46,140 bases of DNA from a virus (IMGVR_UViG_3300033073_000554:64001-110140); one strand, 5' to 3'; positions 1-41,004 are shown, counted from the stretch's first letter. Program-made: numbers and translations. Notes: a model not told the origin generated them from the letters alone.

Positions 1-558
1 TTCATCGGCTCCACCATATTCACTATAGTCACTACCTAAAAATTTTATTATATTTTTACCCATCATTTTAGCATAATACAGCATTACAGGTATGAGTAAA
101 TTATTTTTTTCGAAATCTTGTTGAATTTTAGTATATGGTATTTTAGATTGTATAAATTTATATACAAATGACATTTCGGACCGACCCCCGACCCATCTAT
201 TTCCAGTATATATCTTTTTAATATCTAATTTTGTTAATTTTGCGCGCAAATCATTAAAAACATCATCTGTAAATTTTAATACATCTGAATAATTAATTAT
301 AATGCCATCAATATTATCACCATCCGCATATTGCCTAGCATGACCAATATAATCGGTCATAAATACTCCATCCTCTAACACATCACCAGTAGCCATCCCC
401 CTATATAACATATCATAATCTCTACTTAAACCATCCGTTTTGGATAGGAAAGTATCATAATCATATGACTTTGCTAATTTTATCAATTTACCATATGTAT
501 TCACCGATTCATTCAAAACCTCGTTAATTACATTTGATATGAATTGTCTCAATTTCAT
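1..558 (-). CDS. Partial ORF (runs off the window start), ADP-ribosyltransferase-like fold, with a capsid-targeting-like leader
   Basis: Not in the ORF track; translated by hand from ATG at 558, open to base 1: MKLRQFISNVINEVLNESV...MLYRGMATG...GVFMTDYIGHARQYADG. LYRG followed by G-x-F-x-T...A-x-x-Y-A resembles R/H-type ART cores. Confidence 0.6.
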   Translation of the reverse strand, partial: MKLRQFISNVINEVLNESVNTYGKLIKLAKSYDYDTFLSKTDGLSRDYDMLYRGMATGDVLEDGVFMTDYIGHARQYADGDNIDGIIINYSDVLKFTDDVFNDLRAKLTKLDIKKIYTGNRWVGGRSEMSFVYKFIQSKIPYTKIQQDFEKNNLLIPVMLYYAKMMGKNIIKFLGSDYSEYGGADE

Positions 559-561
559 ATT

Positions 562-1152
562 TTAATCCATATATTTAACTATTCCAACATAACCAAGTTT
601 AACAGTCTTATATTCGTCAATACTTGGTTCAGCCTCAGCATAACAAGTTCTAACTTTACCATCTACTTTTACCTGATATGTAGCTCTGTATGGAGTGTTA
701 TTTGTAATACTGAATTTCCACTCAGCCATTGCGGTTGGTTTATCAACAATAGGTCCAATCCACCCATAGTTTAACATCCCAACTTGATCTAATCCAAACA
801 TAGCAGCTAATGTCTTATTAGCATATGTACATTCACCCAAATCGTTGCAGATAAAAATCCCGAGTCCAGTAGCATTTTCAATAATATCCAAACGCATTTC
901 ATCAATGAGTATATCACGACCTCGCTGCATCATTATATCTTTTATCACTTTACCAGCTTTTTTACCAAATTGGGATTCGATATCTTTAATAACATGCACA
1001 CCAGTCGAATAGTAATATCTGTAATTTTCAATTGTTGGTGATATTTTCGGTAATATCCATTTATAAAATCCGAATAATCCACCTACTATCGCAACTGAAT
1101 ATCCTATTATTGTTACAATATCTTTTACATATGCGGTTGTAATAGCATCCAT
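562..1152 (-). CDS. Membrane-anchored PAS-domain protein
   Basis: N-terminal hydrophobic helix (IVTIIGYSVAIVGGLFGFYKWIL); C-terminal GIFICNDLGECTYANKTLAAMFG...LNYGWIGPI...EWKFSITNNTPYRATYQV matches the PAS pattern. SD-like AGGGA upstream. Confidence 0.7.
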   Translation of the reverse strand: MDAITTAYVKDIVTIIGYSVAIVGGLFGFYKWILPKISPTIENYRYYYSTGVHVIKDIESQFGKKAGKVIKDIMMQRGRDILIDEMRLDIIENATGLGIFICNDLGECTYANKTLAAMFGLDQVGMLNYGWIGPIVDKPTAMAEWKFSITNNTPYRATYQVKVDGKVRTCYAEAEPSIDEYKTVKLGYVGIVKYMD

Positions 1153-1167
1153 ATGTTCATTCCCTAA

Positions 1168-1707
1168 TTATTTGCGGTTTATAGGTTGTTGCACAGGTTT
1201 TACTTGCGCAGTTGTTCTCGGAGTTGTTGGAGCTGGCTTTGGAGCCGCTTTTGGTGCCGCTGGAGCTGGTTTTACTGGTTCCGATTCTACTGGTGGTGCA
1301 TCCCCGGCTTTGTAAACCTTATTCACTCTAGATATTGCAGCAGATATTGCTAATTTTGCATCTTGATCAAATTTTTCAATTAGTGATACCATTGCTAATC
1401 CAACAGCTTTTTTAATCATTGATTGATATTTTTCTACCTCACCTGAAAATTCAGTTCCAACTGGGTCTCCAGTTTGCCGGGCAGCTACCATGGCATCCTG
1501 ATATTCTTTAATTCTATCTGGAACATGATATTTCAATGAATGCAATGTTCCACCACCATAAATGTTAACTGAAACATTCATAGCCCCGACATTGCGATAT
1601 ATATCAACCTCAACACCGTCGGAAAATCCACCATTGACATTTATCATGTCATATTTGATCTTCTTTTCCGTCAATAATTTTTGATATTCTTCAGATAATT
1701 TAAACAT
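1168..1707 (-). CDS. Hypothetical protein with leader MFKLSEEYQKLLTE and Pro/Ala-rich tail (candidate internal head protein)
   Basis: 179-aa ORF packed tightly in the operon; leader ends L-x-E; PAPAAPKAAPKPAP tail. Confidence 0.7.
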   Translation of the reverse strand: MFKLSEEYQKLLTEKKIKYDMINVNGGFSDGVEVDIYRNVGAMNVSVNIYGGGTLHSLKYHVPDRIKEYQDAMVAARQTGDPVGTEFSGEVEKYQSMIKKAVGLAMVSLIEKFDQDAKLAISAAISRVNKVYKAGDAPPVESEPVKPAPAAPKAAPKPAPTTPRTTAQVKPVQQPINRK

Positions 1708-1965
1708 CTAGTTTCTCCATGCATTATCTTCAGCTGTTCTCATTTTCTGAGCATATTTAGCGTTTGATTTTACTAATCTTTTCTTAATACTCGGTTTAGT
1801 ATATGACGCTTTATCGTAGACCTCTGATAGTCTCTCATTTTGCTTCATTATTCTCTTGAATTTTCGTAAAGCAAATGATAGATCGTTGTCAACTATTACA
1901 GATGACGCATATCCAGATTGAATTGTCAATAATTCCCGAAGTTGTTTAAAATCTTTAATATCCAT
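1708..1965 (-). CDS. rpsU: Phage-encoded ribosomal protein bS21
   Basis: VIVDNDLSFALRKFKRIMKQ...LSEV...YTKPSIKKR matches the bS21 signature (ALR/KxFKR...KPSxxR/K). About 20-aa N-terminal extension. Confidence 0.85.
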   Translation of the reverse strand: MDIKDFKQLRELLTIQSGYASSVIVDNDLSFALRKFKRIMKQNERLSEVYDKASYTKPSIKKRLVKSNAKYAQKMRTAEDNAWRN

Positions 1966-1999
1966 TTCTTATTTATTAGTTTATTTTTTTATCGCACAT

Positions 2000-2380
2000 T
2001 TAAATATCGTAGTATTTTTCTAATAATTGTCCAATATCTTCATATGCGGATTCCAATCTTTGTTGTCGTTGCATGATTTCAGATGCTTCAGTTTTCATGG
2101 TTTTATAACACTCTTCCAACTGTTTCATATGTCTGGAAGTTGTAATGTTATCGAACCATCCCTCAGTTTCCTTAAGTGTCATTCCCTTGGCAACATTGAT
2201 TATACTTTCAATTTTAGCTATAGCCTCTTTCAAGTCAGCCGATCTATATATCACTTGTCCGTAATTACTATACGCCTTAACTGATTCTAGAAACGACTTA
2301 CGATCGTCTTTAGTGAAAGTATGTTCATTTTCAAAAACATCCTTATTTGCTTCTAATAGTGATATAATATTACTAGTCAT
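2000..2380 (-). CDS. Hypothetical head-module protein (helical)
   Basis: 126-aa ORF between bS21 and the prohead protease region; leader MTSNIISLLE. Confidence 0.75.
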   Translation of the reverse strand: MTSNIISLLEANKDVFENEHTFTKDDRKSFLESVKAYSNYGQVIYRSADLKEAIAKIESIINVAKGMTLKETEGWFDNITTSRHMKQLEECYKTMKTEASEIMQRQQRLESAYEDIGQLLEKYYDI

Positions 2381-2661: not shown

Positions 2662-2670
2662 TAATTTCCT

Positions 2671-4410
2671 TTATTTTTTATTTATACAACATATACCTGA
2701 TAATTCACACATTATATCTCTAATTGTGTTATTTATTTTATCATCTAATGATGACGTTTTATTAATATTTACAGATTCTGTCATTGAGATGGGTTTAACG
2801 AACGCGCCATGTGTAGATGGATTTGATACAAAATCAAATGTTACCAATGAAAAATCATCTTGCACTTCGACTGTATCATCGTGCTCCGATATCGTTTTAA
2901 CAGATCCCATTCCACGTGAAGATATACCTACTGTAATATTTGCTTTGAATAATTCAGTTACAATATTTCCAGCTGGAGTATTTAATATCTCTATTTTACC
3001 CATCAAATCATCACCAACCCACCAACATTCTAATATATTATGTGATACATTTTTAAGGTTTACCACTGATGAATTACCAGACCAAAATGGTTTACCATTA
3101 TCTCTAGCGTAAAATGTCTCATTCGGTACCGAAACGCATGCTATTTCACCATCATAATCTACCATTTCCATGCTCAAATTACGACGATCTAAATATATAC
3201 CCTTCGCTTTAGATCTAGTTATACGATGTACTGGTTTACAATTTTCACCCTTTATTAATCTATCGCGTATATATGAATCTTTCTGAATTTGCATAATCTT
3301 TGTTGTTGCCATACCCGCTTTAAACATAACTTCTTGTAAATCGTCAGCCAGTCTATCTGATATTGTAAATACGCGCTCTGCTATATATCCTCGATCATTA
3401 ACTACTGTACCATCTCCTTCTAAATATCCAGTATAAAAATGTTTTAAATTTTCTTTACCAGTATTTTTATACTCAACTGGTATATATTTATCTTTAGCAT
3501 ATCCGAGAGGTTCAATTATTTTTTTCAACCTAAGGTCTGTACAACTGAATTCAATTTTATTATCTGGTTTATAATATTCTACCCATTTAAATGATTCTGG
3601 AAAATTTGACAACACTTCACGTATCATATTTTTTCCACGTTCCTTAGTTTGTGTAATACAAACTCGATTATTATCAGCTCGCGTGTGTGAATAATGCCCT
3701 TCAGATATATATAATCCTAAAAATTTATACCACGTTTCAGCATTTATATCAACATCTTCACCATATCTAACTATTCGTTCTTTAGATGTAAATTTTGATA
3801 ATTCTGAAGAATCTACACCACGTATAGTAACCATATCTTCAGATGCAATATCTATACCATTAAAACCATGCTTAGGTATATATGATTTATCGTATTTTAG
3901 TCGATTATTATAAATTTCAAGTGCAGTTACAAATGATCCAACGCCGTATCTATCAACTAAATAAAATCTATGATTCGGCGTCACCATTGTATCTATATTT
4001 TTACCCTTAATATGAATCATTTTACCAGAATATTTCTGGTGTATTTTTTTATTTATTTGGTGTATTTCAATGTCACCAGTTTGGGTATTAAGCGTGCATA
4101 CTCTCTCATCATCGGCTATTTCAGATAGCAGTTTCCACCCACTTTCACATAAAATAGATGCTGTCGGGCGGAGGCACTCACTATGATCCAATTCCCCTAG
4201 TGCCCGTCTCTGCGCTATTTCATTGGCAATATACTTAGAAATTTCACGTTCAAGTATCTTCTTAGAATATATACGCCCATTTTGATTACGCGCATTTGCT
4301 CTTTGTAGTACCCCAGATACAATTAACTTGCCACCATTGGACTCCAACGATTCAGTGATCATTTGCGGTGATACTTTGAATTGATTATATTCTACTAATA
4401 ATTGTTGCAT
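2671..4410 (-). CDS. gp21: Prohead core protease (T4 gp21-like) containing an intein
   Basis: GVLQRANARNQNGRIY, GELDH (catalytic His), GISSRGMG (Ser), TFDFVSNPS (Asp). Removing the intein leaves 211 aa. Confidence 0.93.
   Translation of the reverse strand: MQQLLVEYNQFKVSPQMITESLESNGGKLIVSGVLQRANARNQNGRIYSKKILEREISKYIANEIAQRRALGELDHSECLRPTASILCESGWKLLSEIADDERVCTLNTQTGDIEIHQINKKIHQKYSGKMIHIKGKNIDTMVTPNHRFYLVDRYGVGSFVTALEIYNNRLKYDKSYIPKHGFNGIDIASEDMVTIRGVDSSELSKFTSKERIVRYGEDVDINAETWYKFLGLYISEGHYSHTRADNNRVCITQTKERGKNMIREVLSNFPESFKWVEYYKPDNKIEFSCTDLRLKKIIEPLGYAKDKYIPVEYKNTGKENLKHFYTGYLEGDGTVVNDRGYIAERVFTISDRLADDLQEVMFKAGMATTKIMQIQKDSYIRDRLIKGENCKPVHRITRSKAKGIYLDRRNLSMEMVDYDGEIACVSVPNETFYARDNGKPFWSGNSSVVNLKNVSHNILECWWVGDDLMGKIEILNTPAGNIVTELFKANITVGISSRGMGSVKTISEHDDTVEVQDDFSLVTFDFVSNPSTHGAFVKPISMTESVNINKTSSLDDKINNTIRDIMCELSGICCINKK
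3073..4176 (-). mobile_element. Intein (368 aa) with LAGLIDADG homing endonuclease
   Basis: Starts CLRPTASIL, ends FYARDNGKPFWSGN followed by Ser(+1). LAGLIDADG-like blocks FLGLYISEG and YTGYLEGDG. It splits GELDHSE|SSVVNL. Confidence 0.92.
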
Positions 4411-4428
4411 AATTCGTTTCTTATTTTT

Positions 4429-5289
4429 TTATATACTTGACTGCACCTGCTTAGTGACATCAAATTCACGTATTACACTATCACCACCGCCTGTATAACT
4501 ATTCTTTACATATTTTAGTACAATACTCTTAGCAGTCTTTAATTCTGGATATATATTAAAACTTTTTTTCATAATATTTATTCGCATTGCAACTCTATTC
4601 TTCAATGCGGTGCTACCAACTGGATTATCACCAAATGCTAGTGTATTATCTGATCCAACTCGTTGTTTACCGTCAACCCACGTTTCTAAATAATATCTAG
4701 TGATCGATTCATTTAATTTTCCACTTTTAAGTGCTTCAGTTTCTTCTACTATTAATTTCTTGATAAGTTTTGTAAAGGTCGCTTCATTTATTTTTTTGAC
4801 CTCACCTTTAGGTTTAAATCCATCTTCCATTACACCTCTCTCGTGGTATCCATTAGCGGTCAGTTGCTTTATGAATGCGTCGCGTTCACGTTTATTATGG
4901 AATATTTTGATATTAAAAAAATCACCACCGTCATCATGCTTAGATACTCCATCGTGAAACGATACTGTATATTTTGCTCTACCGATATTATCTTGGGTAT
5001 AGTATCGCTTCTTACCTTCATTTATTTTTTTGACATCACCTGAACTTCGAGATTCAGTTACACCTTTCAGCATATTAATTTCTTGATCTGTATAACCAAA
5101 TTTATTTCTTAGTATTTCCTCACTTTCTTCAGCACTTGGACCACCAAACATTGATTTATTTGGATTTTTAACAGTGTCTACCGCAATACGATGCTGATTA
5201 TAATCAGCCACATTGCTACGAGGTGGCTTTTTAGCTTCAGCTAATTGTGAATGTATCATTTTCTTTAATTGTCCTACTGTAATTTTCAT
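4429..5289 (-). CDS. Modular hypothetical protein, candidate internal head polyprotein
   Basis: Leader MKITVGQLKKMIHSQLAE; internal VKKINE twice and KLNE; SD-like AAGGA upstream. Confidence 0.75.
   Translation of the reverse strand: MKITVGQLKKMIHSQLAEAKKPPRSNVADYNQHRIAVDTVKNPNKSMFGGPSAEESEEILRNKFGYTDQEINMLKGVTESRSSGDVKKINEGKKRYYTQDNIGRAKYTVSFHDGVSKHDDGGDFFNIKIFHNKRERDAFIKQLTANGYHERGVMEDGFKPKGEVKKINEATFTKLIKKLIVEETEALKSGKLNESITRYYLETWVDGKQRVGSDNTLAFGDNPVGSTALKNRVAMRINIMKKSFNIYPELKTAKSIVLKYVKNSYTGGGDSVIREFDVTKQVQSSI
4782..5041. repeat. 26-bp direct repeat pair (4782-4807 and 5016-5041, 25/26 identical)
   Basis: CTTCATTTATTTTTTTGAC(C/A)TCACCT; each copy encodes G(D/E)VKKINE; spacing is 78 codons. 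Confidence 0.9.
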
Positions 5290-5326: not shown

Positions 5327-6490
5327 TTAAATTATTTTCTGATATAAGAAGATTTTCAATATTTTTTCACTATATATAAGTAGATGAAATTGACGCTGAA
5401 AATAAAACTTTTGCCAACTGATGAACAATCTAACTTGCTTATCGATACGATTAAAGAATCCAATGCTGCGTGTAATACTATTTCTGATATAGCGTGGGGA
5501 AAGCGTATTTTTAACAATTTTAAACTCCATCATGAAGTTTATCATAATTATAAAACCGAGTCTAAACTTTCTTCCCAAATAATTATACGCCAAATTGCAA
5601 AAGTTGCCGATGCTTATAAGTTGGATACGAAAACTAAGAGAACTTTTAAACCACTCGGTGGTATTACGTATGATAGTAGAATATTGACGTATAAATCTAA
5701 TAATATAGTTTCGATATGGTGTATTGGCGGACGACAAAAAATGAATTTTATATGTCATAACACTAAATATTTTCCATATATTAAAGGTGAAGCCGATTTG
5801 GTTTTTAAAAATAATAAATTTTATCTTTTTCAAACTATTGATGTTCCAGACACTGATATTGAAAATGTTGAGGAATTCATTGGCTGCGATTTTGGTCTTA
5901 CCGACATAGTTGTAACTTCCGATGGTATTAATCGTTCTGCGGATGCCATTAACAAATATCGCAAATATCGACAAAAAATTCGTAGTTCTATCCAAGCAAA
6001 GGCAGACACTTCTAAACGTTCCACTAAACGGAATTGTAGAAAGTTGTCCAAACGGCTTAGTGGCAAAGAAAGAACTCATGCCAATATTATAAATCACACT
6101 ATTGCAAAATCTATTATACTTTCTACAAAAGAAAGTCATAAAGGAGTAGCTATCGAAGATTTGACCCATATTAGATCTACTACCAAACGAAGAAATAAAA
6201 AATTTAGAACTAAATTTGGAAATTGGGCATTTCGCCAACTTCGATCGTATATTGAGTATAAAGGACTGCTTTATGGTGTTACTGTAGTGGTGGTTGATCC
6301 AAGATATACATCTCAAATATGTAATACATGTAAACATTTTGGTAAACGAATAAATAAACACTTTAAGTGTATTAATTGCGGAACCGATATTGATGCCGAT
6401 GTTAACGCTTCGCTCAATATAGCTACGCTTGGACGTGCCATAAACCACGTTGAAAAATCGAATGATATGTGTTGCTCTATCGTTGCTCAT
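5327..6490 (-). other. 387-codon antisense ORF in register with tnpB (function unknown)
   Basis: The ORF track shows no stop. It is codon-aligned with tnpB, whose codons 1-369 contain no TTA/CTA/TCA. Composition looks like a shadow frame. Confidence 0.45.
5369..5378 (+). promoter_or_regulatory. ACTATATATA promoter-like motif before tnpB1
   Basis: The same motif precedes many phage genes in the sense orientation. Confidence 0.55.
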
Positions 6491-6538
6491 AATTATTCAG
6501 GTTTAAATCCCATTCTATCACTTTGTGTGAATAGGTAG
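5384..6538 (+). CDS. tnpB: TnpB RNA-guided endonuclease
   Basis: RuvC-I IGCDFG, RuvC-II IEDL, Zn finger CNTC/CINC, RuvC-III DADVNASLNI; catalytic D/E/D intact. Confidence 0.93.
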   Translation: MKLTLKIKLLPTDEQSNLLIDTIKESNAACNTISDIAWGKRIFNNFKLHHEVYHNYKTESKLSSQIIIRQIAKVADAYKLDTKTKRTFKPLGGITYDSRILTYKSNNIVSIWCIGGRQKMNFICHNTKYFPYIKGEADLVFKNNKFYLFQTIDVPDTDIENVEEFIGCDFGLTDIVVTSDGINRSADAINKYRKYRQKIRSSIQAKADTSKRSTKRNCRKLSKRLSGKERTHANIINHTIAKSIILSTKESHKGVAIEDLTHIRSTTKRRNKKFRTKFGNWAFRQLRSYIEYKGLLYGVTVVVVDPRYTSQICNTCKHFGKRINKHFKCINCGTDIDADVNASLNIATLGRAINHVEKSNDMCCSIVAHNYSGLNPILSLCVNR

Positions 6539-6563
6539 TTTATTGTGATATGTTCCGTATTTT
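6420..6563 (+). ncRNA. Putative TnpB omegaRNA (scaffold overlapping the tnpB 3' end; guide from 6544)
   Basis: Inferred from known TnpB architecture and the right-end hairpin ATTC..CAC-TTT-GTG..GAAT. The 5' boundary is approximate. Confidence 0.55.
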
Positions 6564-7526
6564 TGATGATATTTTTAATAGTCTTTCATTTATTTTTGTA
6601 AACTTATTTACTGTATTTTTCCAATAAATACTTTGATCAGCATTTATCTCCGTCTTCAATTTAGCAGATCTACTTATTAATCTATCCACTTCATATAAAT
6701 TTCTAGCAACTTCTAATATTGCTTTATTTATTTTTTGCTTTGGAGACATAGTTGCATCATTTACCCATTCCTTGTAGGCAACCTCATTTACTGGTTCGCA
6801 ATATGTTGTGTCTGATGGTTTCTTAACCTTCCTTCGAAATGCATTTGGCGTTTGCTGCATCCCTTCACCGCCATCTAAACTCGAGGTGGTATTATCTTCG
6901 CATATTTCTTCCTCACCCTCATCTTCCAATTCATTAATATGATTATAGATATTCGTCAATGATAATACATTTTCATCTATATCATCATCCTCAGACCATT
7001 TTGTAATCTTCTTAGGATCTTGGCCTGTAATCTGTTTAATTTTTTCGTCGGCTTCATCATCATCCTCGGCATCTATCTGAACTGCGGTCTTATCACCATC
7101 TTTTTTATAGAAGCTATATGTCTTCGATTCAACTGTCATATTTCGCATTTTATCATTTACAATGTGTATGTTATCATGATGAACCTTTTCATTAGCATCA
7201 TATCCATATAGTACCATATTCGCCGCGTCTATTTCTTGTGGAGTTTTAAATAATTCCATATGTTTTGATACGAAATCGGCTTGGTCCCTCGTCGGTATAT
7301 AATTACCACCAGCCGTGCTATAATTAAATTTACTTCCTTCGCGTTTTTTATCGGCTCTATCATTTTTTCTCTGAATATACGCATCATGTTGAGCCGGGTC
7401 TTTCATTTTTTCCGCAAATTCTCTACGTTGTGATGCAGATGGTTTCCACTTATATGCCTCATCAACTATACTATTCAACTCATTATATCGACCTTCTATA
7501 ATATCAATTAAGCTGGGTATTTTCAT
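6540..7526 (-). CDS. Hypothetical head-module protein (possible prohead core/scaffold-associated)
   Basis: 328 aa; leader MKIPSLIDIIE; acidic middle and helical C-terminus; two genes downstream of portal. Confidence 0.7.
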   Translation of the reverse strand: MKIPSLIDIIEGRYNELNSIVDEAYKWKPSASQRREFAEKMKDPAQHDAYIQRKNDRADKKREGSKFNYSTAGGNYIPTRDQADFVSKHMELFKTPQEIDAANMVLYGYDANEKVHHDNIHIVNDKMRNMTVESKTYSFYKKDGDKTAVQIDAEDDDEADEKIKQITGQDPKKITKWSEDDDIDENVLSLTNIYNHINELEDEGEEEICEDNTTSSLDGGEGMQQTPNAFRRKVKKPSDTTYCEPVNEVAYKEWVNDATMSPKQKINKAILEVARNLYEVDRLISRSAKLKTEINADQSIYWKNTVNKFTKINERLLKISSKIRNISQ

Positions 7527-11475: not shown

Positions 11476-13098
11476 TTATTTTCTTCGGTCAGTTAACCAT
11501 CTCATATCTTCGGTATCTTTACCAGTGTTCATCGTCCACATATTATTACTTGATCTCCCCTGATTTGTGTACACTCCACGGTGAATATTGTCAACTGTTC
11601 TCTTAGTTAATTCTATACCCACACTTCGCAATCTAAGTGCTGTATCTCTAACGAATAACAACATTCCCAGCGACATTACTAGGTCATCATGACCGCCCTT
11701 ATTAGCTTGAGCTTTACCGTTTATCCACATAAATGTTTTCAATTCATTTATGGTTCTCAAACATTTCATATCCAATGGAGTGTTTGGATCGGTGAAATAC
11801 ATTTCCAATTTAGATATGAGATTTAATCTAACTTTTGTTGATGATGTGAACCCCGGGGTCATGTCCTTCTTATCATGCAAATCATAATTCTTTCGCAATT
11901 GTATGTTAGGATCAAAGAATGGGTCGTTCTTAAACGAGTAATATAAATTTGGATATGCGGCGTTTATACATTCCTGTATTACGTCCCATCCAACTGAATG
12001 GTTTTCTACAACTAGTAATGCCTTATTCCATTCGGTAGCCGCAGACATTAGTAAGTATGCAAAATCTCTAGTATCTATTTTAGATTTAAATGATGCACAA
12101 TGCTCCATAGTATCTACGTCATATATGTGGAACGCGCTAAAATCTGATCCGTCGCCCCTTGATACGTCTGCCACTAAAACATAATTTCTAGTATAATTCG
12201 GTCGCACCCAAATCCAGAAATCCCCAGCATATCTCTTTTCAATCGGGTCCTTAATACGAGTATCTATGTACTGTTGAAGTATTTCACCCTCGATTACAGT
12301 GTGTCCAGATACTAGGAAGTCAACTGAGTGTTCCTGTGCAAACTTCCTCGCGCCTAGTTTTGCTTTTTCACCGTCTGCCCATTTCTGATCTCTTCCCGGG
12401 TGTACAGACCATGGTAGCATGATTGGGTTAAATGGATCGGTTCCCGGGTCAGATCTTCCCTCAATTGCATCTGTCCAAATTTCATAAAATTTTCCTTGCG
12501 CACCATTAGCAGTTGATAACAAACATATATCACCACCTTCAGCAGTCGTAGCCTGAGCAGCAGTATATATTTCATCAGCTTCTGTAATGAATGCCATCTC
12601 ATCGATTATCAGTAGTGAAACAGCCTTCGATCTAACTGATTTTGGAGAACTGGATACTGCCGTCACACTCGATCCATTTGAAAATTGTAATACTAATTTA
12701 TTATTTAAATCTTGTTTGGCAGTAGATTTAATCCAAGTTGGTAATTCATTATACATCAATTGGATTTTTGATAATAATTCCTTAGCAGTATCTTGAGTTG
12801 TCGCAATGATCAATATCTTAAAGTCATTGGTAAAAATCATCTTCCACAATGCATATGCCGCCAAAACCGTCGACATACCTAATTGCCTACCCTTCCCAAT
12901 TATATTATATCGGTGTGATCTAATTTCTTTTATCGCACGTTGCTGGAATTCATACAGGTGGAATGGCATCTTACCCTTGGTAGGGTGTTGGATGACACAA
13001 TATTTTCGAATAAAGTGAACGGGGTCCGCTGCACTATTTTTATATTCACTTTTTATTATTTCCTGAAGTGTTGGCTTCGGTTGTTGTTTATCTGCCAA
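11476..13098 (-). CDS. terL: Terminase large subunit (T4 gp17-like)
   Basis: KGRQLGMST (Walker A region), LLIIDEMAF (Walker B), ADVSRGDGSDFS and HDDLVMS nuclease motifs. TTG start with AGGAGG 5 nt upstream. Confidence 0.95.
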   Translation of the reverse strand: MADKQQPKPTLQEIIKSEYKNSAADPVHFIRKYCVIQHPTKGKMPFHLYEFQQRAIKEIRSHRYNIIGKGRQLGMSTVLAAYALWKMIFTNDFKILIIATTQDTAKELLSKIQLMYNELPTWIKSTAKQDLNNKLVLQFSNGSSVTAVSSSPKSVRSKAVSLLIIDEMAFITEADEIYTAAQATTAEGGDICLLSTANGAQGKFYEIWTDAIEGRSDPGTDPFNPIMLPWSVHPGRDQKWADGEKAKLGARKFAQEHSVDFLVSGHTVIEGEILQQYIDTRIKDPIEKRYAGDFWIWVRPNYTRNYVLVADVSRGDGSDFSAFHIYDVDTMEHCASFKSKIDTRDFAYLLMSAATEWNKALLVVENHSVGWDVIQECINAAYPNLYYSFKNDPFFDPNIQLRKNYDLHDKKDMTPGFTSSTKVRLNLISKLEMYFTDPNTPLDMKCLRTINELKTFMWINGKAQANKGGHDDLVMSLGMLLFVRDTALRLRSVGIELTKRTVDNIHRGVYTNQGRSSNNMWTMNTGKDTEDMRWLTDRRK

Positions 13099-14499: not shown

Positions 14500-14835
14500 T
14501 TAGGTAAATGAAATTTTCTTTATTGATGATAATAAATTAACCAATTGACTCTTTGGAACTCCAACTAATTCTGCAAATGAAGTAATCGCTTCCGCTTGCT
14601 CTACAGGTGAAGTAAAATTAAGATAACCCATTAGTGTAGGTGATTTTTGTAATTTATCAAAAAATAGTCTAACTTTAGCACGTCTAACTTTCGCAGCTCT
14701 AGGGTCTACAGCATCCGTTTCCGCCGGAGTTTCTCCAGTTACTACAGGTTCTGTTCCAGATGCCATTCCACGTTTGTTTGCTGATAATCCAGCTTCTAAG
14801 ATTGGTGCCAATTTTCCGTATTTTTTATCTAACAT
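14500..14835 (-). CDS. Hypothetical protein, leader ending PILE
   Basis: 111 aa; promoter-like motif at 14856-14865. Confidence 0.7.
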   Translation of the reverse strand: MLDKKYGKLAPILEAGLSANKRGMASGTEPVVTGETPAETDAVDPRAAKVRRAKVRLFFDKLQKSPTLMGYLNFTSPVEQAEAITSFAELVGVPKSQLVNLLSSIKKISFT

Positions 14836-14864: not shown

Positions 14865-15659
14865 TTAATTTTGATTAGAATCATCGGCGTCCATAAGATC
14901 TGTAACGATTTTTTGTACCTGAAATGGTAAAATATACAGAATATTGTCCAAATGTTTACATACTGCTCCGCGAAGTCTCGGGTTTCGTATCTTCGGAAAC
15001 AATGGTTCAGGTTCAATAGCATAATTTTTAACAGTTCCAATATACTTAAACCCCCAATATAACCACGATGGATCGGTGCAGTGAACTTCGATATCTCCAG
15101 CTAACGCTTGTTTGACAATATCACGCAATGGTAATACACCGCGTTTTGATTTAAGAAGTTCGGGCAGTGTAAGTAATTTAACGTGTTGATCATATTTTAC
15201 ACCCGGCTTCGTGTGTGAATCGGTTACAAAGTGTAAAATATTTCCTTCGATTCCAATGTATTTTGACCCGGGGGTTAATTTTGATTTAGCGCGTATTCGT
15301 AAAAAATCATCAACATTGTTTCGAAGATCTCTGTAATTAAGTTCAGTTAATATACTCTCCAGTTCCGAGTGAACCATTTCTGTAAAATCTTCTCCAATAT
15401 ATTCACCTTCCCACGCATCAATAATTTCTGGTAAATTATTCAAATTTTCGGATATAAATTTATTATACCCCCCCTCTATAATTACACCATCATGTATAGT
15501 ATCGATTGCTCCCTCAATTGCTCCCTCAATTGCTCCCTCATTTACAACATCATTTACAACATCATTTACAACATCATTGACACTTACTTCAGGTCGCATT
15601 CGTCTCACTTTTCGCAATGCTAGTTCTAACGATTCTTCAATTATATTATCTAGTTTCAT
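14865..15659 (-). CDS. SWIM-like Zn-binding protein with capsid-targeting-like leader
   Basis: Likely start MKLDNIIEESLE at 15659; VHCTDPSWLYWG...IRNP...VCKHL. Confidence 0.65.
   Translation of the reverse strand: MKLDNIIEESLELALRKVRRMRPEVSVNDVVNDVVNDVVNEGAIEGAIEGAIDTIHDGVIIEGGYNKFISENLNNLPEIIDAWEGEYIGEDFTEMVHSELESILTELNYRDLRNNVDDFLRIRAKSKLTPGSKYIGIEGNILHFVTDSHTKPGVKYDQHVKLLTLPELLKSKRGVLPLRDIVKQALAGDIEVHCTDPSWLYWGFKYIGTVKNYAIEPEPLFPKIRNPRLRGAVCKHLDNILYILPFQVQKIVTDLMDADDSNQN
15505..15576. repeat. Two adjacent 12-bp tandem arrays (ATTGCTCCCTCA x3, TTTACAACATCA x3)
   Basis: Direct reading; encode VNDV x3 and EGAI x3. Confidence 0.92.
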
Positions 15660-25954: not shown

Positions 25955-26634
25955 TTCCTATTTTTATTTTTAATTTGGTTTCTAATCCAATTCTTTGCAT
26001 TATACCCCAATTCAGAGTTCATCCATTTTCGAATAATCTTATCCGCATAGTTTATAGTTTCATCATCGGTGGTTGAATTATCTATACCTATCCAATGGTC
26101 AACTCCAAATATACCAACTAGCTTATTACTATTTGCATTATATCTATTCCACTTATCAATTACAACATCCTCTGGTATACTTCGTTCACGTTTTCTGTTT
26201 CTAGCCAAGGAAACTTCTAATGTGGTATTCACGAATACAATATATGTATCATACCCAAGTTCAACTAGCTGATCTCGCTTACTTTTAACTTTCTCTATAT
26301 CTGCCGCGGTACCAGCGATTATTAACCCAAGTCTACCTTCAGCATACTGCATCTCTATACGATCGGTAATATCTGTAGCATCTGATCGAATTGGATCTCG
26401 TATGGAACTTGGTATGGTGTCAAGCTTCAAATTATCACCATTTACCTTTTTCAACATGTGTGTAAATGCGACATCTGAATCTACTAACTTTAATCCGTAT
26501 GATGTAAGACCAAGCTTATCAATCATATATGATTTTCCAGCACCGGGAGATCCAACCACAAATATGGCCTTGAAGATGTTTGGGTCATACACTCCCTCAG
26601 CAATTACTTGTCTTAATATTTCTTCTAGTTTCAT
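25951..26634 (-). CDS. P-loop kinase (zeta-toxin/AAA_33-like) with capsid-targeting-like leader
   Basis: MKLEEILRQVIAE; AIFVVGSPGAGKS; VSLARNRKRER lid motif. Confidence 0.78.
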   Translation of the reverse strand: MKLEEILRQVIAEGVYDPNIFKAIFVVGSPGAGKSYMIDKLGLTSYGLKLVDSDVAFTHMLKKVNGDNLKLDTIPSSIRDPIRSDATDITDRIEMQYAEGRLGLIIAGTAADIEKVKSKRDQLVELGYDTYIVFVNTTLEVSLARNRKRERSIPEDVVIDKWNRYNANSNKLVGIFGVDHWIGIDNSTTDDETINYADKIIRKWMNSELGYNAKNWIRNQIKNKNRK

Positions 26635-26671: not shown

Positions 26672-27004
26672 TCATGCAATCATTTTTTGAACAATATCAT
26701 TTAATGTTTTTGTATCAATAGTTGAGAAATACCAACTCGCTTGTTTCCCATCTTCTGTTTTGAAATAGAATGTGTAATCGTCACCGTAAATACCACCATC
26801 ATATTTATACAATTCAGTAAAATGTAATTTCCTGTAATTATGTTCCATTTCAAAATTTAATTTGACATATCCATCTTGACGTTCATTAAAATATTTTTCA
26901 ACTATATCATATAATTGACTTCTATTTAATTTACTATCATTTTCATTCAATGTCTCCCTGACTGTAGTTTTGATGAAATTCTGCAATTTTTTATTATTTT
27001 CCAT
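26672..27004 (-). CDS. Hypothetical protein with capsid-targeting-like leader
   Basis: MENNKKLQNFIKTTVRETLNE. Confidence 0.7.
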   Translation of the reverse strand: MENNKKLQNFIKTTVRETLNENDSKLNRSQLYDIVEKYFNERQDGYVKLNFEMEHNYRKLHFTELYKYDGGIYGDDYTFYFKTEDGKQASWYFSTIDTKTLNDIVQKMIA

Positions 27005-28958: not shown

Positions 28959-29615
28959 TTAGAGTTTTTTATTTAAAATTTGTATGCGATTATAGTTTTC
29001 AGTTAAATTTGGCATCGCTACTTCAGTTACATTACCGATATTCGATTCATCCATTCCAGACCCATCATAATTCATTGCCCATTCTGCAAAACTATCTAGC
29101 ATCTTAGCAATATTTCTTTGCTCTGGAGTTCCATATGGATCATATTTAAACTTAGCGCACAATGCACGATATTCTTTATCACCGAAATTCTCATAACCAC
29201 CCTTCTGTTTCCACTTATTTATCAATGAATTCTTCACTTTTTTAATGGTAGATATTACACTATTTACATTATCGACTTCATTAATAACCGATTCATCCAT
29301 TTCACCAGTGTGCATTAAAACCTTTCCAGAACGATCTAAATATCCCGCATCGATAAGACTTTGTGCAGTTCTTCCATACACACCTTGTAATCCACGTATT
29401 TGCCCGGAAGTGATTAGTTCAGAAAAAAAATCGATAGTCTCATCATCGGTCATTTCACCGTTTTCCCATTGTATAATCTTTCCTACGATGTCATTCGAAT
29501 TATTATCTAATTCATTAATATTAGTTTGGTCCATCTCATTTAAAAACTTTCTCGGGTTCATCATCCTATCAAAATTTTCTTTAAGTGTTCCTTTAAATGT
29601 TCCTTGAAATCCCAT
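28959..29615 (-). CDS. Modular hypothetical protein, candidate internal head polyprotein
   Basis: TLKE/FLNE/NINE/VINE sites separate modules (WENGEM...LQGVYGRTA; GGYENFG). Confidence 0.7.
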   Translation of the reverse strand: MGFQGTFKGTLKENFDRMMNPRKFLNEMDQTNINELDNNSNDIVGKIIQWENGEMTDDETIDFFSELITSGQIRGLQGVYGRTAQSLIDAGYLDRSGKVLMHTGEMDESVINEVDNVNSVISTIKKVKNSLINKWKQKGGYENFGDKEYRALCAKFKYDPYGTPEQRNIAKMLDSFAEWAMNYDGSGMDESNIGNVTEVAMPNLTENYNRIQILNKKL

Positions 29616-34660: not shown

Positions 34661-35308
34661 TTACCCAACTTCATCTACTCTACGTTTTAATTCCAATTTG
34701 ATATCTTTGGCTAATTTACCAGTCCATCCACCTATACATGATAATACATCCTTCGCAACTTCGACGGCTGGTTGATTTTCATACATCGTCTGTAAATCTT
34801 TAATTCGCGTCAAAGCTATTACCTTCGGTTTATCTTCATCCTTTAACCCGGTGTATTTATACTTTATAATTAAAGCTAAATCACCAACTGTAATAGTTGA
34901 AAGATCTTTCTCTGGTTTAGTATATTTAACTTCTTCGGGTTCATCCATGGTTTCTGGTTTACCAACTGTTGAAGGTGTAGCTTCATGTAATGACGCTATC
35001 GATTCCACTATAGTAACGCCATTATTATCTAGCGGATTACCCATCTTAGTAGCAATATCACCAGTTCTAAAGTGGAATTCTTTACCAATTGGATTTCCAC
35101 TACGTCCTAATTTTCTAAATTTCATTGCCGTATGATCTTCACTTATTTGAGTAACGATATATACCCCCGCATCAACACCTTTCAACATTATCCACCCACG
35201 AACTTCAAATTTAGTCCCAATATTGAATTTATTAAGTAAATCAGTATAACTGCTCTCAAGTAATTGGCGGCGTACCATTTTTCGTAATTCTTTTATTGTC
35301 ATTCGCAT
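34661..35308 (-). CDS. Modular hypothetical protein with capsid-targeting-like leader
   Basis: MRMTIKELRKMVRRQLLE; internal SLHE. Confidence 0.7.
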   Translation of the reverse strand: MRMTIKELRKMVRRQLLESSYTDLLNKFNIGTKFEVRGWIMLKGVDAGVYIVTQISEDHTAMKFRKLGRSGNPIGKEFHFRTGDIATKMGNPLDNNGVTIVESIASLHEATPSTVGKPETMDEPEEVKYTKPEKDLSTITVGDLALIIKYKYTGLKDEDKPKVIALTRIKDLQTMYENQPAVEVAKDVLSCIGGWTGKLAKDIKLELKRRVDEVG

Positions 35309-35358: not shown

Positions 35359-36111
35359 TTAACTTATACTCTCAATACACCAAAAGTCAGAGCATGCATC
35401 AGAAGTAATGAAGCTATATGGCATTTGGAAATACCCATTCTTACCCCAATCGGTGCCCCATGAATTTTGAATAGTAAATGTTTGTGTCAAATCGGAATAC
35501 CCGACGCATCCGATTGCGTGTCCTCCAATTACTCGCTCATTTACTTTTGGTAATGGCATAATTCCAGTAGTACTATCCCAATTACCATTGATAAATGATT
35601 CATATACATCAAACCCAAAGCTTATACATGCTCCAGATATTAATGTTCTCTTGAGTGCGTCAATTGTTTGTGGAACAGTGGCATATCTAACTGTAGTATG
35701 AGTTAAACCATTTTTATATGCAGACTTTGGTGGTTTTTTAGCAAATTTACTAATATCGTATTTCCACAATGATTCAGTACATACCCCTTCTTTATTAAGT
35801 GATTTAAATGCATCGCGAATAATTGCTCCACTATCTTCTAATTCCCACCCACGCATTGCACGCGCGTTGTAATATAGAAATAATCGACTCGGTTTTAATC
35901 TATTTTTCAGTGATTTTTGTTTTGCTTCATAAAGATAGCATAAACATCCAGAGTTGGCGACACAGCTGCCGATTTGCGACTGATCATATACTGGTAATGT
36001 AATCGGAAGTTTAAATTCAGTTGGTAATGGTGCCGCACCCATTAACGTATGTCTCACTGAAATGTAGTCTCGATTATCGACTTCTTGCTTGATCCACCCA
36101 TTAATATTCAT
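35359..36111 (-). CDS. Papain-like cysteine protease (C1A-like)
   Basis: DQSQIGSCVAN (Gln, Cys), GGHAI (His), QNSWG (Asn). Confidence 0.93.
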   Translation of the reverse strand: MNINGWIKQEVDNRDYISVRHTLMGAAPLPTEFKLPITLPVYDQSQIGSCVANSGCLCYLYEAKQKSLKNRLKPSRLFLYYNARAMRGWELEDSGAIIRDAFKSLNKEGVCTESLWKYDISKFAKKPPKSAYKNGLTHTTVRYATVPQTIDALKRTLISGACISFGFDVYESFINGNWDSTTGIMPLPKVNERVIGGHAIGCVGYSDLTQTFTIQNSWGTDWGKNGYFQMPYSFITSDACSDFWCIESIS

Positions 36112-36132
36112 ATTTTATATCCTATTTTTTTA

Positions 36133-39100: not shown

Positions 39101-39951
39101 ATATTTAATGTGGCTGTACCCGACCCAGATAATGTCAAATCTATGATTCGCTGAGTAGTTGGAGCCGAAGAATCTAGTAAATCATCCCAAGTTTTAAAGG
39201 CAGTCGCATTGCTTGTATATTGATTGGTATCGATATCAAAATTAGGACCCGGGATCGTATTAAAGGTATTACCAGAGATTGGAGTAGTCAATATCACAGT
39301 ATCAACATATGAATCCATTATCTCTAAACCAAACCACGCTGTAGTTAATTCTTCTAGCTCATCAACTGCTGCATGCTGTAATTTAATATAAAATGTATCT
39401 TCTAAATTTCGATCATATCGAATTAACGCAACGTTACAAACCTTATTGAACCCGAAATCTACCACTAGATTTCCCAAATCTCCCATCATACTAAGTGAAG
39501 ATACCGCACTCTTAAAATCAGCATATCCACCTTCCTTTATTTCAGAAGGTACAATTGATAATTTTAACTCAGTTCTATCTGGAGATATTTCACGTAATAT
39601 TACAACTGGAGAATCTGGATTACCCCATATTTTTTTAAAAAGATTAACTGCAATTATATAAGAACCGCGGCGTATATTAGCAGATCTAAATGTACTGGCT
39701 ACATCTATCAGCATGCTATTGGTTGCACTATCATTTGTTAGAAATGATGCATTATGATCTCCAGCGATATAATCACCATAAAAACTGTATATATGTAGCT
39801 GTGATATACTATCGGAAATGATATTACGATCTTCTGGAATAAGTGTATCATACGGCATCAGTTTCAAGTCAGCCGATGAGAATACTATCCCATATTGGGG
39901 TTCGTTCAACTGGACAATTGTCTCTTTGTTAGTATATCTATTTAAACTCAC
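36133..39951 (-). CDS. Large baseplate-wedge-type structural protein
   Basis: 1272 aa; NLPYLLKTKGTSRSVKALMSIYG motif; structural context. Confidence 0.65.
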   Translation of the reverse strand: MSLNRYTNKETIVQLNEPQYGIVFSSADLKLMPYDTLIPEDRNIISDSISQLHIYSFYGDYIAGDHNASFLTNDSATNSMLIDVASTFRSANIRRGSYIIAVNLFKKIWGNPDSPVVILREISPDRTELKLSIVPSEIKEGGYADFKSAVSSLSMMGDLGNLVVDFGFNKVCNVALIRYDRNLEDTFYIKLQHAAVDELEELTTAWFGLEIMDSYVDTVILTTPISGNTFNTIPGPNFDIDTNQYTSNATAFKTWDDLLDSSAPTTQRIIDLTLSGSGTATLNIDYTDYNNFIFYSSAVERLENFKYKLNKIETYNSNIYTLQQSTASISTYISSSISLIQRRVDQITTTFDHFERWLYYSPTASIFTHDITGSITPYPKYLQGGKYILHPTTSSIATAWYNGVYDTGSMFDQHNHNRLWWAIPEHILMDPANSDYILFVEMVAQHFDNLHAYIQALTQIHARDEHFERGASNDLLYHIAKSYGWNLQNTRQLSDLWFYKLGTNSDGAHEYTGSMFSLSHENQTKQIWKRIVNNLPYLLKTKGTSRSVKALMSIYGIPQTLISIKEYGGPSEEDSKPQMIEDRYAYLLKFSGAQSVELDRYNIGVGTGSWDESGVSKSVPDEVIFRFKSEYSGSSNMSLWAIENRDTGVRSTAEIRLKSARQEYGTSSYSGSYTYGKLEFIIQGGTTSSYAYYSGSTDYLPLFDGDIWTVRLYTDTPITSTTSTGSFNLTVGRADDCTFGTYIISSSVNVVAYSGMPSYNFDGWGVTPSRVNTPLRVRLGGTTASLGIAAANGTSSFFSGSMQSYKEYYKNMSPDTFKEHILNPSSYHLDEPTASFYDLYRYFPLGADVIRHDHVYSSSISSSHPNRDINFHTTAVFNRFTGTQETQYESNNETYYVYTPTIGPNNVRNNKIRLESTRLLRDLSPNSYSERSQFDMSSFDTGRLAIVFSLADQVNKDIYNQFGFTELDDWIADPALEYESEYSELKRFSNQYWQKYEQSNDINAFIRILSVYDYTFFEQIRQLAPGRSDLIAGILVEPNILERSKVHIFKRPTVENPQWETELTYNLPTSGEFIYTEGIVSASLDFNVRYDYLTGSIESEYDFNVRYDYLTGSIPYPWIFTASSIHHTEIGHQRTGICGTIDTLPKRYSGSQCETQSYYDNQRIHSCKYKKVIYHYSSSAAIQPKYLRHWYTAVSMSYNWYYSRSLDSTGYQIDECSSRNRSRFVGSKLSSPDWNVDSSDTVDGGPVVTIWESNPNNLFNKPNGIGGGLFVQ
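36610..36699. repeat. Intragenic duplication with 51-bp period (DFNVRYDYLTGSI x2)
   Basis: 29-bp exact core at 36620-36648 and 36671-36699. Confidence 0.92.
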
Positions 39952-40439
39952 TCGATTCTTTTATTATCACTTATTAATTTAATATATTCTAGCTTATCTT
40001 CAATTGGTAAATATAAAAATACAATGTGCTCACTAGATTCATTTAATACTAACCCATCATATCCATCTTTTTGCAACTTTTCGAGAATTTCATTTTGCTC
40101 CATGAAATCCCAATTTTTAGATGAATCAACTATATTATCAATATCTACTCGCTCATTTGGAAATGCTGTTACATACCATTGTAATAATTTATCGACCGCT
40201 TCCTTATTATTTGTATCAAATAATTTTAAATTGGACTTAATTTTAGCTTCGTATATATATCCAGTACCCCATCTGTATTTGGCAAAAAACTCTGCTTTCC
40301 ATTTTGATGTTGAGAAAAATGTTCCAAATCCACCATATGCATATTTATCAAAATCACCTAATGGTTGACGGGTGCCTTTATACAGCTTACCATATATATC
40401 ACCTTTTATATCTTCGTATAATTGAAGTAGTTTAACCAT
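39948..40439 (-). CDS. ADP-ribosyltransferase-like fold protein with short leader
   Basis: Likely start MVKLLQLYE; LYKGT...GTFFSTSKWKAEFFA...GYIYEAKI...GYDGLVL. Confidence 0.6.
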   Translation of the reverse strand: MVKLLQLYEDIKGDIYGKLYKGTRQPLGDFDKYAYGGFGTFFSTSKWKAEFFAKYRWGTGYIYEAKIKSNLKLFDTNNKEAVDKLLQWYVTAFPNERVDIDNIVDSSKNWDFMEQNEILEKLQKDGYDGLVLNESSEHIVFLYLPIEDKLEYIKLISDNKRIE

Positions 40440-41004
40440 TTCGTTCATTACCAATTTTATCACTATAACTTAGTGCCAATGACAATAACCTATTTGTTGA
40501 TGTATCGAAAATCGTCGATTTCATTACAGTATTTGGATCAATTATTAACCCTGATAATAATCGATGACTTCCATCAATTAGGTGTCCATCATTGGATACT
40601 ACAGTTAATGTTTTTTTCAAATAATCAATTGTAGATTCAATTCCATTTTTAACTATATTCTTGACTGATTTATCCAGATAGCACTGTTTCTGGACGACCT
40701 TTAGCTTCTTAACTGGTATTAATTTATCGACACTTTTAATCCCATATTTAGTATGTAATATTTTTTCAAAATCGTCAACTTGTGCATTGGATATCACGGG
40801 CATTTCATCACGATCAAATATTCCATGTGAAAAGATTTCCATGGCTAATTTTAAATTATTTTCAAGATTATCTACCTTAATACCAGCATCAACACAATAT
40901 TTTACCGCACTTTCTAATGATAATGTATGTAATTCAAGTTCACCAGCATCTTCTCCACCAGCTTCGTTGAGTATTTGAGTATATATTTCCGCAAGTTTAA
41001 ACAT
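40432..41004 (-). CDS. ParB/Srx-like nuclease-domain protein with capsid-targeting-like leader
   Basis: Likely start MFKLAEIYTQILNE at 41004; VVSNDGHLIDGSHRLL. Confidence 0.7.
   Translation of the reverse strand: MFKLAEIYTQILNEAGGEDAGELELHTLSLESAVKYCVDAGIKVDNLENNLKLAMEIFSHGIFDRDEMPVISNAQVDDFEKILHTKYGIKSVDKLIPVKKLKVVQKQCYLDKSVKNIVKNGIESTIDYLKKTLTVVSNDGHLIDGSHRLLSGLIIDPNTVMKSTIFDTSTNRLLSLALSYSDKIGNERNG

Follow-up and report, generated by a model that had tools for sequence, protein, structure and literature searches.

Candidate capsid-targeting leaders on head-module and enzyme-like proteins of an uncultivated T4-superfamily phage

The capsid targeting sequence of bacteriophage T4, reportedly the subject of work by Mullaney and Black in 1996, is a short N-terminal leader that reads MKTYQEFIAE. 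Here, leaders of this kind are described in a DNA stretch of 46,140 nucleotides (nt), bases 64001-110140 of the 110,140-base viral contig IMGVR_UViG_3300033073_000554. The whole stretch is referred to as the window, and window coordinates equal genome coordinates minus 64000. Ten proteins encoded in the window and one encoded just to its left begin with leaders that end in a hydrophobic residue, any residue and Glu (h-x-E), and a prohead protease of the T4 gp21 type is encoded among them. This leader set probably constitutes a T4-type capsid-targeting and propeptide system, cut after (L/I)-x-E by the gp21-type protease. The mechanism itself is textbook, and leaders in an environmental T4-like phage would be a new instance of it. 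In the library searched, the papers on capsid targeting sequences all deal with T4 or giant phages, and no earlier description was found there for environmental T4-like phages.

In T4, gp21 (catalytic residues H85 and S140) cleaves after Glu in the motif I/L-x-E (PMC12991175). It strips targeting sequences of 10-20 residues off internal proteins and Alt (PMC5694885, PMC3012670), and it also cuts gp22, gp67, gp68, gp23 and gp24 and degrades core proteins (PMC5694885). T4 and the phage described here have in common a short N-terminal leader ending in (I/L)-x-E on unrelated, fast-evolving proteins, which in T4 are IPI, IPII, IPIII and Alt (PMC3012670, PMC5694885). Both also combine a protease of the gp21 type with a gp22-like scaffold and with a propeptide on a gp23-type capsid protein, and in both several leader genes lie in the head cluster. 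T4 Alt is an ADP-ribosyltransferase (ART), and one of the cargos here is an ART-like candidate. By eye, an amphipathic helix that ends in h-x-E is all that the T4 leader and the leaders here clearly share. Those described here are often longer (13-21 residues), fall into several sub-types and sometimes contain two tandem sites. There are about twice as many cargos as in T4, including ParB-like and kinase domains and a multi-module protein, and the protease carries an intein. Whereas the T4 system is established at the protein level, the one described here is known from sequence.

Another group of head-targeting propeptides is found in the giant phages phiKZ, 201phi2-1 and SPN3US, in which head and ejection proteins are cut at (S/A/G)-x-E by a gp21-like protease (PMC5694885, PMC7411985, PMC10052503). 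Paralogs in these phages keep identical N-termini while the rest diverges, and the propeptides have been proposed to act as targeting sequences (PMC5694885, PMC7411985, PMC10052503). Most of these propeptides exceed 100 residues, and their P3 residue is small, whereas the leaders here are short, carry Leu or Ile at P3 and are nearer to those of T4. A further point of comparison is the polyvalent proteins of phages and conjugative elements, which Iyer and colleagues are said to have described in 2017 as fusions of ART-PolyVal, ParB-like, Zeta-like and peptidase domains, often with MuF. Polyvalent proteins and this phage share a domain repertoire (ART-PolyVal, ParB-like, Zeta-type kinase) and a proposed delivery together with the DNA. 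In polyvalent proteins the domains are fused, whereas here they are encoded by separate genes for proteins of 110-286 residues, each with its own leader and without MuF. The carrier of polyvalent proteins is MuF- or portal-associated, whereas loading in the phage described here would proceed via scaffold and protease.

The contig comes from an uncultivated T4-superfamily phage, a distant relative of T4, and the window is its late region. Its TerL shares 45% identity with the TerL of Microcystis phage Mel-JY01 and 41% with that of Flavobacterium phage immuto, both T4-superfamily phages. The G+C content is about 33%, and almost every gene in the window lies on the minus strand. In transcription order, the head module encodes TerL, the portal protein, a conserved 280-residue protein, variable genes, the protease, further variable genes, a homolog of ribosomal protein S21, the scaffold and the capsid protein. 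The last two are encoded just left of the window, with a scaffold-like protein at genome 62136-63095 and a gp23-type major capsid protein at genome 60472-62112 (PF07068, 7.9e-72). An identical head-module layout is found in 80 related IMG/VR loci (capsid protein identity 54-69%), and seven of the leader genes are placed between the portal gene and the scaffold gene.

The protease of this module is a T4 gp21-type prohead core serine protease (Peptidase_S77) encoded at 2671-4410 on the minus strand, with a match to PF03420 at 2.5e-28 in addition to LAGLIDADG_3 and Intein_splicing. Its alignment with the T4 gp21 structure 5JBL covers both GELDH, with the catalytic His, and ISSRG, which contains the Ser. 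A 368-residue LAGLIDADG intein occupies residues 79-446 (window 3073-4176, minus strand) and begins two residues past the catalytic His. Its boundaries, GELDHSE / C...N / S, provide Cys as the first residue and Asn as the last, followed by Ser. The intein is an exact insert relative to intein-free relatives of 201-218 residues, and the extein is complete without it. These features suggest that the intein splices out, and head maturation would then hinge on protein splicing. The protease itself carries conserved h-x-E↓S sites close to both ends (the arrow here and below marks the putative boundary).

Matching sites occur in the structural proteins that a gp21-type enzyme would be expected to process. 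The propeptide of the capsid protein reads ...GLLE↓G...QLLE↓N...QLISE↓ANST, and all 68 of 68 relatives keep these three sites; the final site lies 17 (16-18) residues ahead of a conserved LPL(V/I)RR. Across the related loci, h-x-E is present near the N-terminus in 91% of scaffold proteins (86% with a small P1′ residue) and 92% of proteases, and in about 90% of the members of these two families A, G, S or N comes directly after the h-x-E at this place. The motif is scarce near the N-terminus of the portal protein (0%), S21 (8%) and sheath (18%) and in the first 26 residues of the capsid protein (9%). The TerL and 280-residue families do contain h-x-E, but it lacks the small P1′ residue and lies inside conserved domains. 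Taken as a pathway, these observations suggest that the amphipathic leader helix would dock a newly made protein into the scaffolding core during prohead assembly. The protease would turn active once the intein splices out, and would then cut after the leader Glu, at the same kind of site as in the capsid propeptide (LISE↓A), the scaffold and the protease itself. The mature cargo would remain in the head with the DNA. Scaffold docking, cleavage, head retention and ejection of the leader proteins are all predicted steps.

The leaders behave as portable elements, which are shared by proteins that are otherwise unrelated. BLASTP aligns the products of genome genes 63272 and 63932 over residues 1-18 only (78% identity), and those of genome genes 68429 and 98661 over residues 1-19 only. 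This is the arrangement seen in the internal proteins of T4, in which a shared leader precedes unrelated bodies. In an all-against-all ungapped BLOSUM62 comparison of N-terminal 22-mers, nine pairs scored at least 35, whereas internal segments gave 1.75 such pairs on average and never more than 4, an excess that is modest and in which four of the nine pairs are whole-length paralogs. The leader pairs from this comparison are, in genome coordinates, 63272 with 63932, both of these with 90672, 68429 with 98661, and 65168 with 104432. A more extreme case is found on a separate 160-kb metagenomic phage contig (L086, 3776-7666), where five consecutive genes share a near-identical 17-residue leader, M.L[RK]KFI..T[IV]REYLNE. 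The cargos are unrelated; two are ART-PolyVal proteins and one is ParB-C-like. This leader type matches MENNKKLQNFIKTTVRETLNE, the leader of window 26672-27004, and L086 also has an ART gene ahead of a ParB-C-like gene, the order of genome genes 63932 and 63272.

What is conserved in these leaders is their end. In four protein families, the sequence and length of the leader vary freely, yet h-x-E almost always closes the leader before the conserved domain begins. For instance, the ParB-C-like protein encoded just left of the window (genome 63272-63928; phrog_2579 "ParB C-terminal domain" at 1e-33) has 149 homologs of like length in the database, whose leaders span 7-23 residues and are widely divergent in sequence. 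An h-x-E lies at most 8 residues upstream of the conserved DYRGEHxAP in 82 of 103 homologs (53 of 64 once de-replicated), with Leu or Ile as the P3 residue in 52 of 63. Put to the same boundary test, Lys gives 22, Asp 18 and Gln 2, against 82 for Glu. Another example is the P-loop kinase-like protein of the AAA_33 / Zeta-toxin type (25951-26634, minus strand; PF13671 at 4e-11, PF06414 at 3.7e-9), which carries the leader MKLEEILRQVIAE followed by G. It has 2919 homologs, nearly all of which, among those inspected, possess a variable leader of 8-18 residues ending in h-x-E↓G(V/L)YDP; the homolog of Pelagibacter phage HTVC008M starts MIPFILKE↓G. One branch of this kinase family (P0129-P0159), assigned to Saprospiraceae, has a degenerate Walker A motif (GASEASKS) and sits on contigs of 0.7-3 Mb. 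These copies may be prophage-borne or domesticated, and may hint at the host lineage.

The leader signal is concentrated in the late region. The bare motif was defined as [ILVM]-x-E with Glu at residues 6-24, and internal 30-residue windows of the same proteome served as background. Across the genome, no enrichment was found, with the motif in 39 of 125 proteins (31%) against 25% of internal windows. From 60 kb onward it is present in 26 of 52 proteins, compared with 13 of 73 earlier ones (binomial p = 4e-5 at the internal rate of 0.239; Fisher p = 2e-4). With A, G or S after Glu, the contrast rises to 13 of 52 late proteins versus 2 of 73 earlier ones (p = 3e-6). An earlier note on this DNA had described a genome-wide leader on about 15 proteins and had listed 14 N-terminal peptides. 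All 14 peptides are found in the window at the starts it gave. The genome-wide claim is not borne out, as the bare motif is at chance level across the genome and every case falls within 63-105 kb; enrichment is confined to the late region. The number of proteins likewise has to be reduced. Ten of the 14 listed proteins, together with that of genome 63272-63928, are rated convincing, whereas four (14500-14835, 14865-15659, 28959-29615 and 39948-40439) are weak and fit chance.

The eleven convincing leaders have 10-21 residues, with L, I or V at P3 and A, G, S or N at P1′ in 10 of 11. Some contain two tandem sites (IISE-HLSE), and several of the proteins have further internal h-x-E sites. Among the 14 listed sites, A, G or S occupies P1′ in 9, compared with 20% of internal sites (p = 5e-4). 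The leaders are also somewhat more amphipathic than other N-termini, with a mean hydrophobic moment of 0.58 against 0.46 (p = 0.002). When a position matrix was derived from foreign leaders only, N-terminal sites of this genome made up 7 of the top 30, against a base rate of 7% (3-4 fold). Two other attempts at a leader model were abandoned. A strict pattern fitted to this genome, L-x2-h-h-x3-h-x-E, gave 8 N-terminal and 2 internal hits, and was dropped as over-fitted because it was post hoc and matched 0 of 581 N-termini in the related loci. A hidden Markov model built from nine of the phage's own leaders reached at most 9 bits against the related loci, where 6 of 10 hits of at least 6 bits were N-terminal, and was too weak to serve as a classifier.

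Three or four of the convincing proteins belong to conserved families of the head module. The first is a 126-residue protein (2000-2380, minus strand) with the leader MTSNIISLLE followed by A and with homologs at 55 loci. An h-x-E lies at residues 7-26 in 48 of 48 distinct members (100%); leader sequence and length are variable and homology begins after the leader. By its position, this protein is a candidate counterpart of T4 gp67/gp68. The second, of 328 residues (6540-7526, minus strand), carries MKIPSLIDIIE followed by G and has homologs at 39 loci. The C-terminal stretch of about 120 residues is conserved, while leaders and N-terminal halves are variable, and 86% of the family have h-x-E at residues 7-26, as in ...KKYFEE↓AK and ...KALINE↓D. 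A further small head-module family, which is not present in this genome, has h-x-E near the N-terminus in 88% of members. The third protein (1168-1707, minus strand; 179 residues) has the leader MFKLSEEYQKLLTE followed by K and a Pro/Ala-rich C-terminus resembling the scaffold, to which it shows weak similarity (E 0.005). Its homolog in locus L005 has a different leader that nevertheless ends in LLTE followed by A, and its own leader resembles that of 40432-41004 (22-mer score 36). It is probably a prohead-core component. Next to it, the ribosomal protein S21 homolog of the head module is encoded at 1708-1965 (minus strand; PF01165 at 1.6e-9), a position kept in 61 related loci.

The remaining convincing proteins are variable cargos, several of which resemble enzymes. 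The product of window 1-558 (minus strand; genome 63932-64558, extending 69 nt beyond the left edge of the window; 208 residues) carries the leader MKLRQFISNVINEVLNE followed by S, and shares only the leader with its unrelated neighbour at genome 63272-63928. It has no Pfam match, but an Atlas feature score of 0.93 and 184 features shared with clusters carrying PF18760 or PF26151 make it a well-supported candidate for an ART-PolyVal/AcrIF11-like ADP-ribosyltransferase. In the matched Atlas clusters, 29% of members carry PF18760, and its structural neighbours include fusions of ART-PolyVal with MuF_C. At 40432-41004 (minus strand; 190 residues), the leader MFKLAEIYTQILNE followed by AGGED precedes a candidate ParB_N/ParBc-like nuclease domain that contains DGNHR. 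Its Atlas score is 0.94, with 180 features shared with viral clusters carrying PF02195 or PF08857. Leader and start are kept in two homologs of 190 residues, the only ones that a word-index search returned. The 286-residue protein of 4429-5289 (minus strand; leader MKITVGQLKKMIHSQLAE followed by A) is built from three modules, joined through two VKKINE↓(G/A) linkers, and is possibly a small polyprotein. Its leader aligns solely with that of 34661-35308, and its middle module (residues 87-160) is a widespread mobile domain, which was found in varying positions in 857 database proteins. This module of about 70 residues looks like a swappable cassette within the leader-bearing protein, because a relative that is 94% identical (P0241) has a different module between the same VKKINE linkers.

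Three further cargos are orphans. The protein of 24486-24833 (115 residues; leader MKIKLHELKTIIKSEINKLNE followed by AGGGD) is encoded by the sole leader gene on the plus strand; its leader resembles those of 4429-5289 and of an 81-residue L005 protein, and it has no family match in Pfam or PHROG. The 110-residue protein of 26672-27004 (minus strand), whose leader MENNKKLQNFIKTTVRETLNE is followed by N, also lacks a match in these databases. Its leader scores 41-44 against those of genome genes 63272 and 63932 and closely matches leaders on foreign homologs of another family, e.g., MELRKFIATTIREYLNE. The 215-residue protein of 34661-35308 (minus strand; leader MRMTIKELRKMVRRQLLE followed by S) has the top hydrophobic moment in the genome, and its residues 1-19 alone resemble 4429-5289; neither a family nor a close relative was found. 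IMG/VR searches for relatives of this protein and of 40432-41004 found nothing, and Pfam and PHROG scans gave no match for most cargos.

The cargo types proposed by the earlier note, ART-PolyVal/AcrIF11-like, ParB-like and Zeta/AAA_33-type kinase, hold as leads from Pfam and Atlas features, whereas no SWIM-like cargo was identified among the leader proteins. That note also took the set as injected effectors. This probably does not hold for the three or four proteins that belong to conserved head-module families (2000-2380, 6540-7526 and probably 1168-1707), which are probably prohead-core parts like T4 gp67/gp68 and not effectors. The variable cargos, both enzyme-like and orphan, remain delivery candidates, and the reading of these as an injected arsenal is drawn from the precedent of T4 Alt and from virion data on the Agrobacterium jumbo phage Atu_ph07.

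Published proteomics of two jumbo phages bears indirectly on the fate of such proteins. Atu_ph07 gp53 (AUZ94865, 778 residues, L088:754-3090) is a polyvalent-type fusion, identified by accession offset and by a mass of 87.07 kDa that agrees with Table S5 of PMC6102473. It begins with MKWNDLNE↓A, followed by an ART-like domain, VTE↓G, an internal kinase domain, NLTE↓L, a repeat, NLNE↓L and a second repeat; h-x-E is found at three of the four domain junctions. gp53 is an abundant virion protein, detected by 31 unique peptides at 45.5% coverage (PMC6102473, Table S5). It appears in almost all gel slices but migrates chiefly at the size of a fragment, peaking in slice 9, which is also where proteins of roughly 21 kDa peak (PMC6102473); the predicted kinase fragment has 206 residues. 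Atu_ph07 also encodes a gp21 homolog, gp204 (PMC6102473). In the Ralstonia jumbo phage RsoM2USA (L090:94-3235), ORF254-258 all have such leaders, ORF255 being ART-like and ORF254 a kinase. The ten most abundant virion bands include ORF257, and ORF379 is a gp21-like protease (PMC8504454). The mass of ORF257 (17.57 kDa in the paper, compared with 19.65 at full length and 17.3-18.0 after leader removal) was not used as evidence of cleavage, because the paper leaves unsaid whether it was measured or predicted.

Several observations weigh against a leader-directed packaging system in this phage. As a short and common sequence, (I/L/V)-x-E is worthless as a classifier without context. The motif alone is unable to classify a protein because, on the matrix derived from foreign leaders, many internal helices reach the scores of the leaders themselves. 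There is no single leader consensus, since the strict pattern matched nothing in the related loci. TerL (11476-13098, minus strand), which the earlier note held to lack the motif, does have LQE and KSE near its N-terminus. This leader-like stretch, ...TLQEIIKSEYK..., is conserved in relatives as part of the TerL domain, and TerL would therefore be a false positive in a motif-only scan. For most variable cargos, the 80 related loci contain no homologs, and for two of them IMG/VR holds no close relative, which leaves these proteins outside the comparison of leader conservation. In the kinase branch on Mb-scale Saprospiraceae contigs the Glu is shifted, and the E↓GVYDP of the kinases could be part of the fold and not a cleavage site. 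The L086 leader cluster does not adjoin head genes. The gp53 gel pattern is a reading of a published table and not a mapped cleavage, the four weak candidates have no support beyond the bare motif, and for this phage the leader system is known from sequence alone.

Among the alternatives, the leaders may be real assembly signals on proteins that are prohead-core or scaffold accessories, cut and expelled like T4 gp22, gp67 and gp68, which would leave no arsenal of injected effectors. This agrees with the three or four leader proteins whose families are conserved across dozens of head modules from portal to scaffold, with the Pro/Ala-rich segment that 1168-1707 shares with the scaffold, with the internal h-x-E sites of several proteins and with the degradation of core proteins by T4 gp21 (PMC5694885). 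The variable cargos tell against it, being enzyme-like (ART-PolyVal/AcrIF11-like, ParB-like, Zeta-type kinase) with no obvious assembly role, patchily distributed and shuffled between phages. In addition, the Atu_ph07 kinase-ART fusion persists in mature virions at 45% coverage, and T4 provides a direct precedent in Alt, an ADP-ribosyltransferase that is packaged. Expulsion of the leader proteins as core accessories seems unlikely as an alternative to T4-type capsid targeting.

The leader could instead be a functional helix with another job, unconnected with the capsid and perhaps uncleaved, such as an autoinhibitory propeptide that silences toxic enzymes while the phage is being produced, an oligomerization or membrane-surface helix, or a peptide for docking to the portal or a chaperone. 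A masking propeptide is plausible because toxicity is possible for ART, ParB-like and Zeta-like domains, and the leaders are amphipathic. This explanation is nonetheless quite improbable, as the terminal Glu, the Leu/Ile at P3 and the small P1′ residue fit the known specificity of S77 proteases and the sites in the phage's own capsid protein. Conserved head-module proteins that are not enzymes bear the same leader type, and homologous proteins are found in virions. Masking and capsid targeting can, moreover, coexist.

There is very little probability that the pattern is mostly chance and composition, arising from hand-picked matches and starts among helical N-termini rich in K, I, L, N and E in an A+T-rich genome; although the motif is found in 24-25% of internal windows and in 31% of all N-termini of the genome, the enrichment across 541 non-redundant N-termini from the related loci is 1.4 fold for h-x-E and 1.5-1.6 fold for h-x-K and h-x-Q, three starts were hand-chosen and an independent matrix fails to split leaders from internal helices, chance leaves unexplained the enrichment confined to the late region, the 78% identity over 18 residues between unrelated neighbours, the five-gene leader of L086 and the preference for Glu over Asp, Lys and Gln in about 100 homologs. 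For the core set, chance is refuted by leader sharing, the Glu boundary, L086 and late enrichment.

For the four weak candidates chance is the likeliest reading. The protein of 14500-14835 (minus strand; 111 residues; MLDKKYGKLAPILE followed by A) has an average hydrophobic moment, no homologs in the related loci and no family. That of 14865-15659 (minus strand; 264 residues; MKLDNIIEESLE followed by L) partially matches the tail-protein PHROG phrog_1722 at 7e-12, has Leu at P1′ and an internal Met start, and finds no comparative support in the related loci. Comparative support from these loci is likewise missing for the 218-residue DUF7417 protein of 28959-29615 (minus strand; PF24192 at 6e-18), whose leader MGFQGTFKGTLKE, followed by N, is unlike every other. 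The protein of 39948-40439 (minus strand; 163 residues; MVKLLQLYE followed by D) has no homologs among the related head-module loci and a sub-threshold match to ART-PolyVal PF18760 (E 9e-6, 26.9 bits versus a cut-off of 31.2); its open reading frame also offers a GTG and another ATG start. Three of the 14 listed starts (15659, 40439 and 41004) are internal Met codons and not the first start codon. Start 41004 is backed by the two 190-residue homologs with an identical start, whereas 15659 and 40439 are a free choice.

Other features of the window concern its expression and its remaining genes. The sequence CTATATATA occurs 17 times, compared with about 6 expected, and lies on the coding strand, mostly 2-77 nt upstream of structural genes, among them those for the portal, tail tube and fibre. 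Four leader genes follow it as well, at 14 nt (2000-2380), 21 nt (14500-14835), 23 nt (24486-24833) and 16 nt (34661-35308). Its sites include genome positions 40271, 42080, 48862, 50392, 66394, 74258, 75465, 78856, 88455, 98620 and 99324. CTATATATA is taken as comparable to the T4 late promoter TATAAATA and is a candidate late promoter. Two further peptidases of the late region lack a leader, a papain-family C1 cysteine peptidase at 35359-36111 (minus strand; PF00112 at 5e-15) and an HslV-like peptidase at 19138-19686 (minus strand; phrog_1040 at 4e-19). A minus-strand open reading frame of 387 residues at 5327-6490 has an odd composition and was rejected as an antisense artefact of a plus-strand tnpB gene (5384-6538); it is not a late-operon gene.

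Beyond this phage, it is possible, as a tentative extension, that the portable (L/I)-x-E leader is a general device of environmental T4-superfamily phages, among them Bacteroidota phages, pelagiphages and Rak2-like jumbo phages, that loads diversified enzymes (ADP-ribosyltransferases, ParB-like nucleases, Zeta-type kinases) into the head, encoded either by single genes with a leader each or as polyproteins that the prohead protease would cut at h-x-E linkers. The occurrence of the same cargo domains as separate leader-tagged genes or as a cleavable fusion would connect the T4 targeting system with polyvalent proteins. Capsid-borne proteins are prime candidates for anti-defence and host takeover because they act before phage gene expression, and they are normally found only through virion proteomics of cultured phages. 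If a leader together with an S77 protease reliably marks capsid cargo, it would provide a sequence-only predictor of the injected proteome in uncultivated phages. It would also single out for testing the ART, ParB-like and kinase families that carry leaders, of which the kinases alone have thousands of metagenomic members, and the new leaders could broaden the T4-style protein-packaging toolkit.

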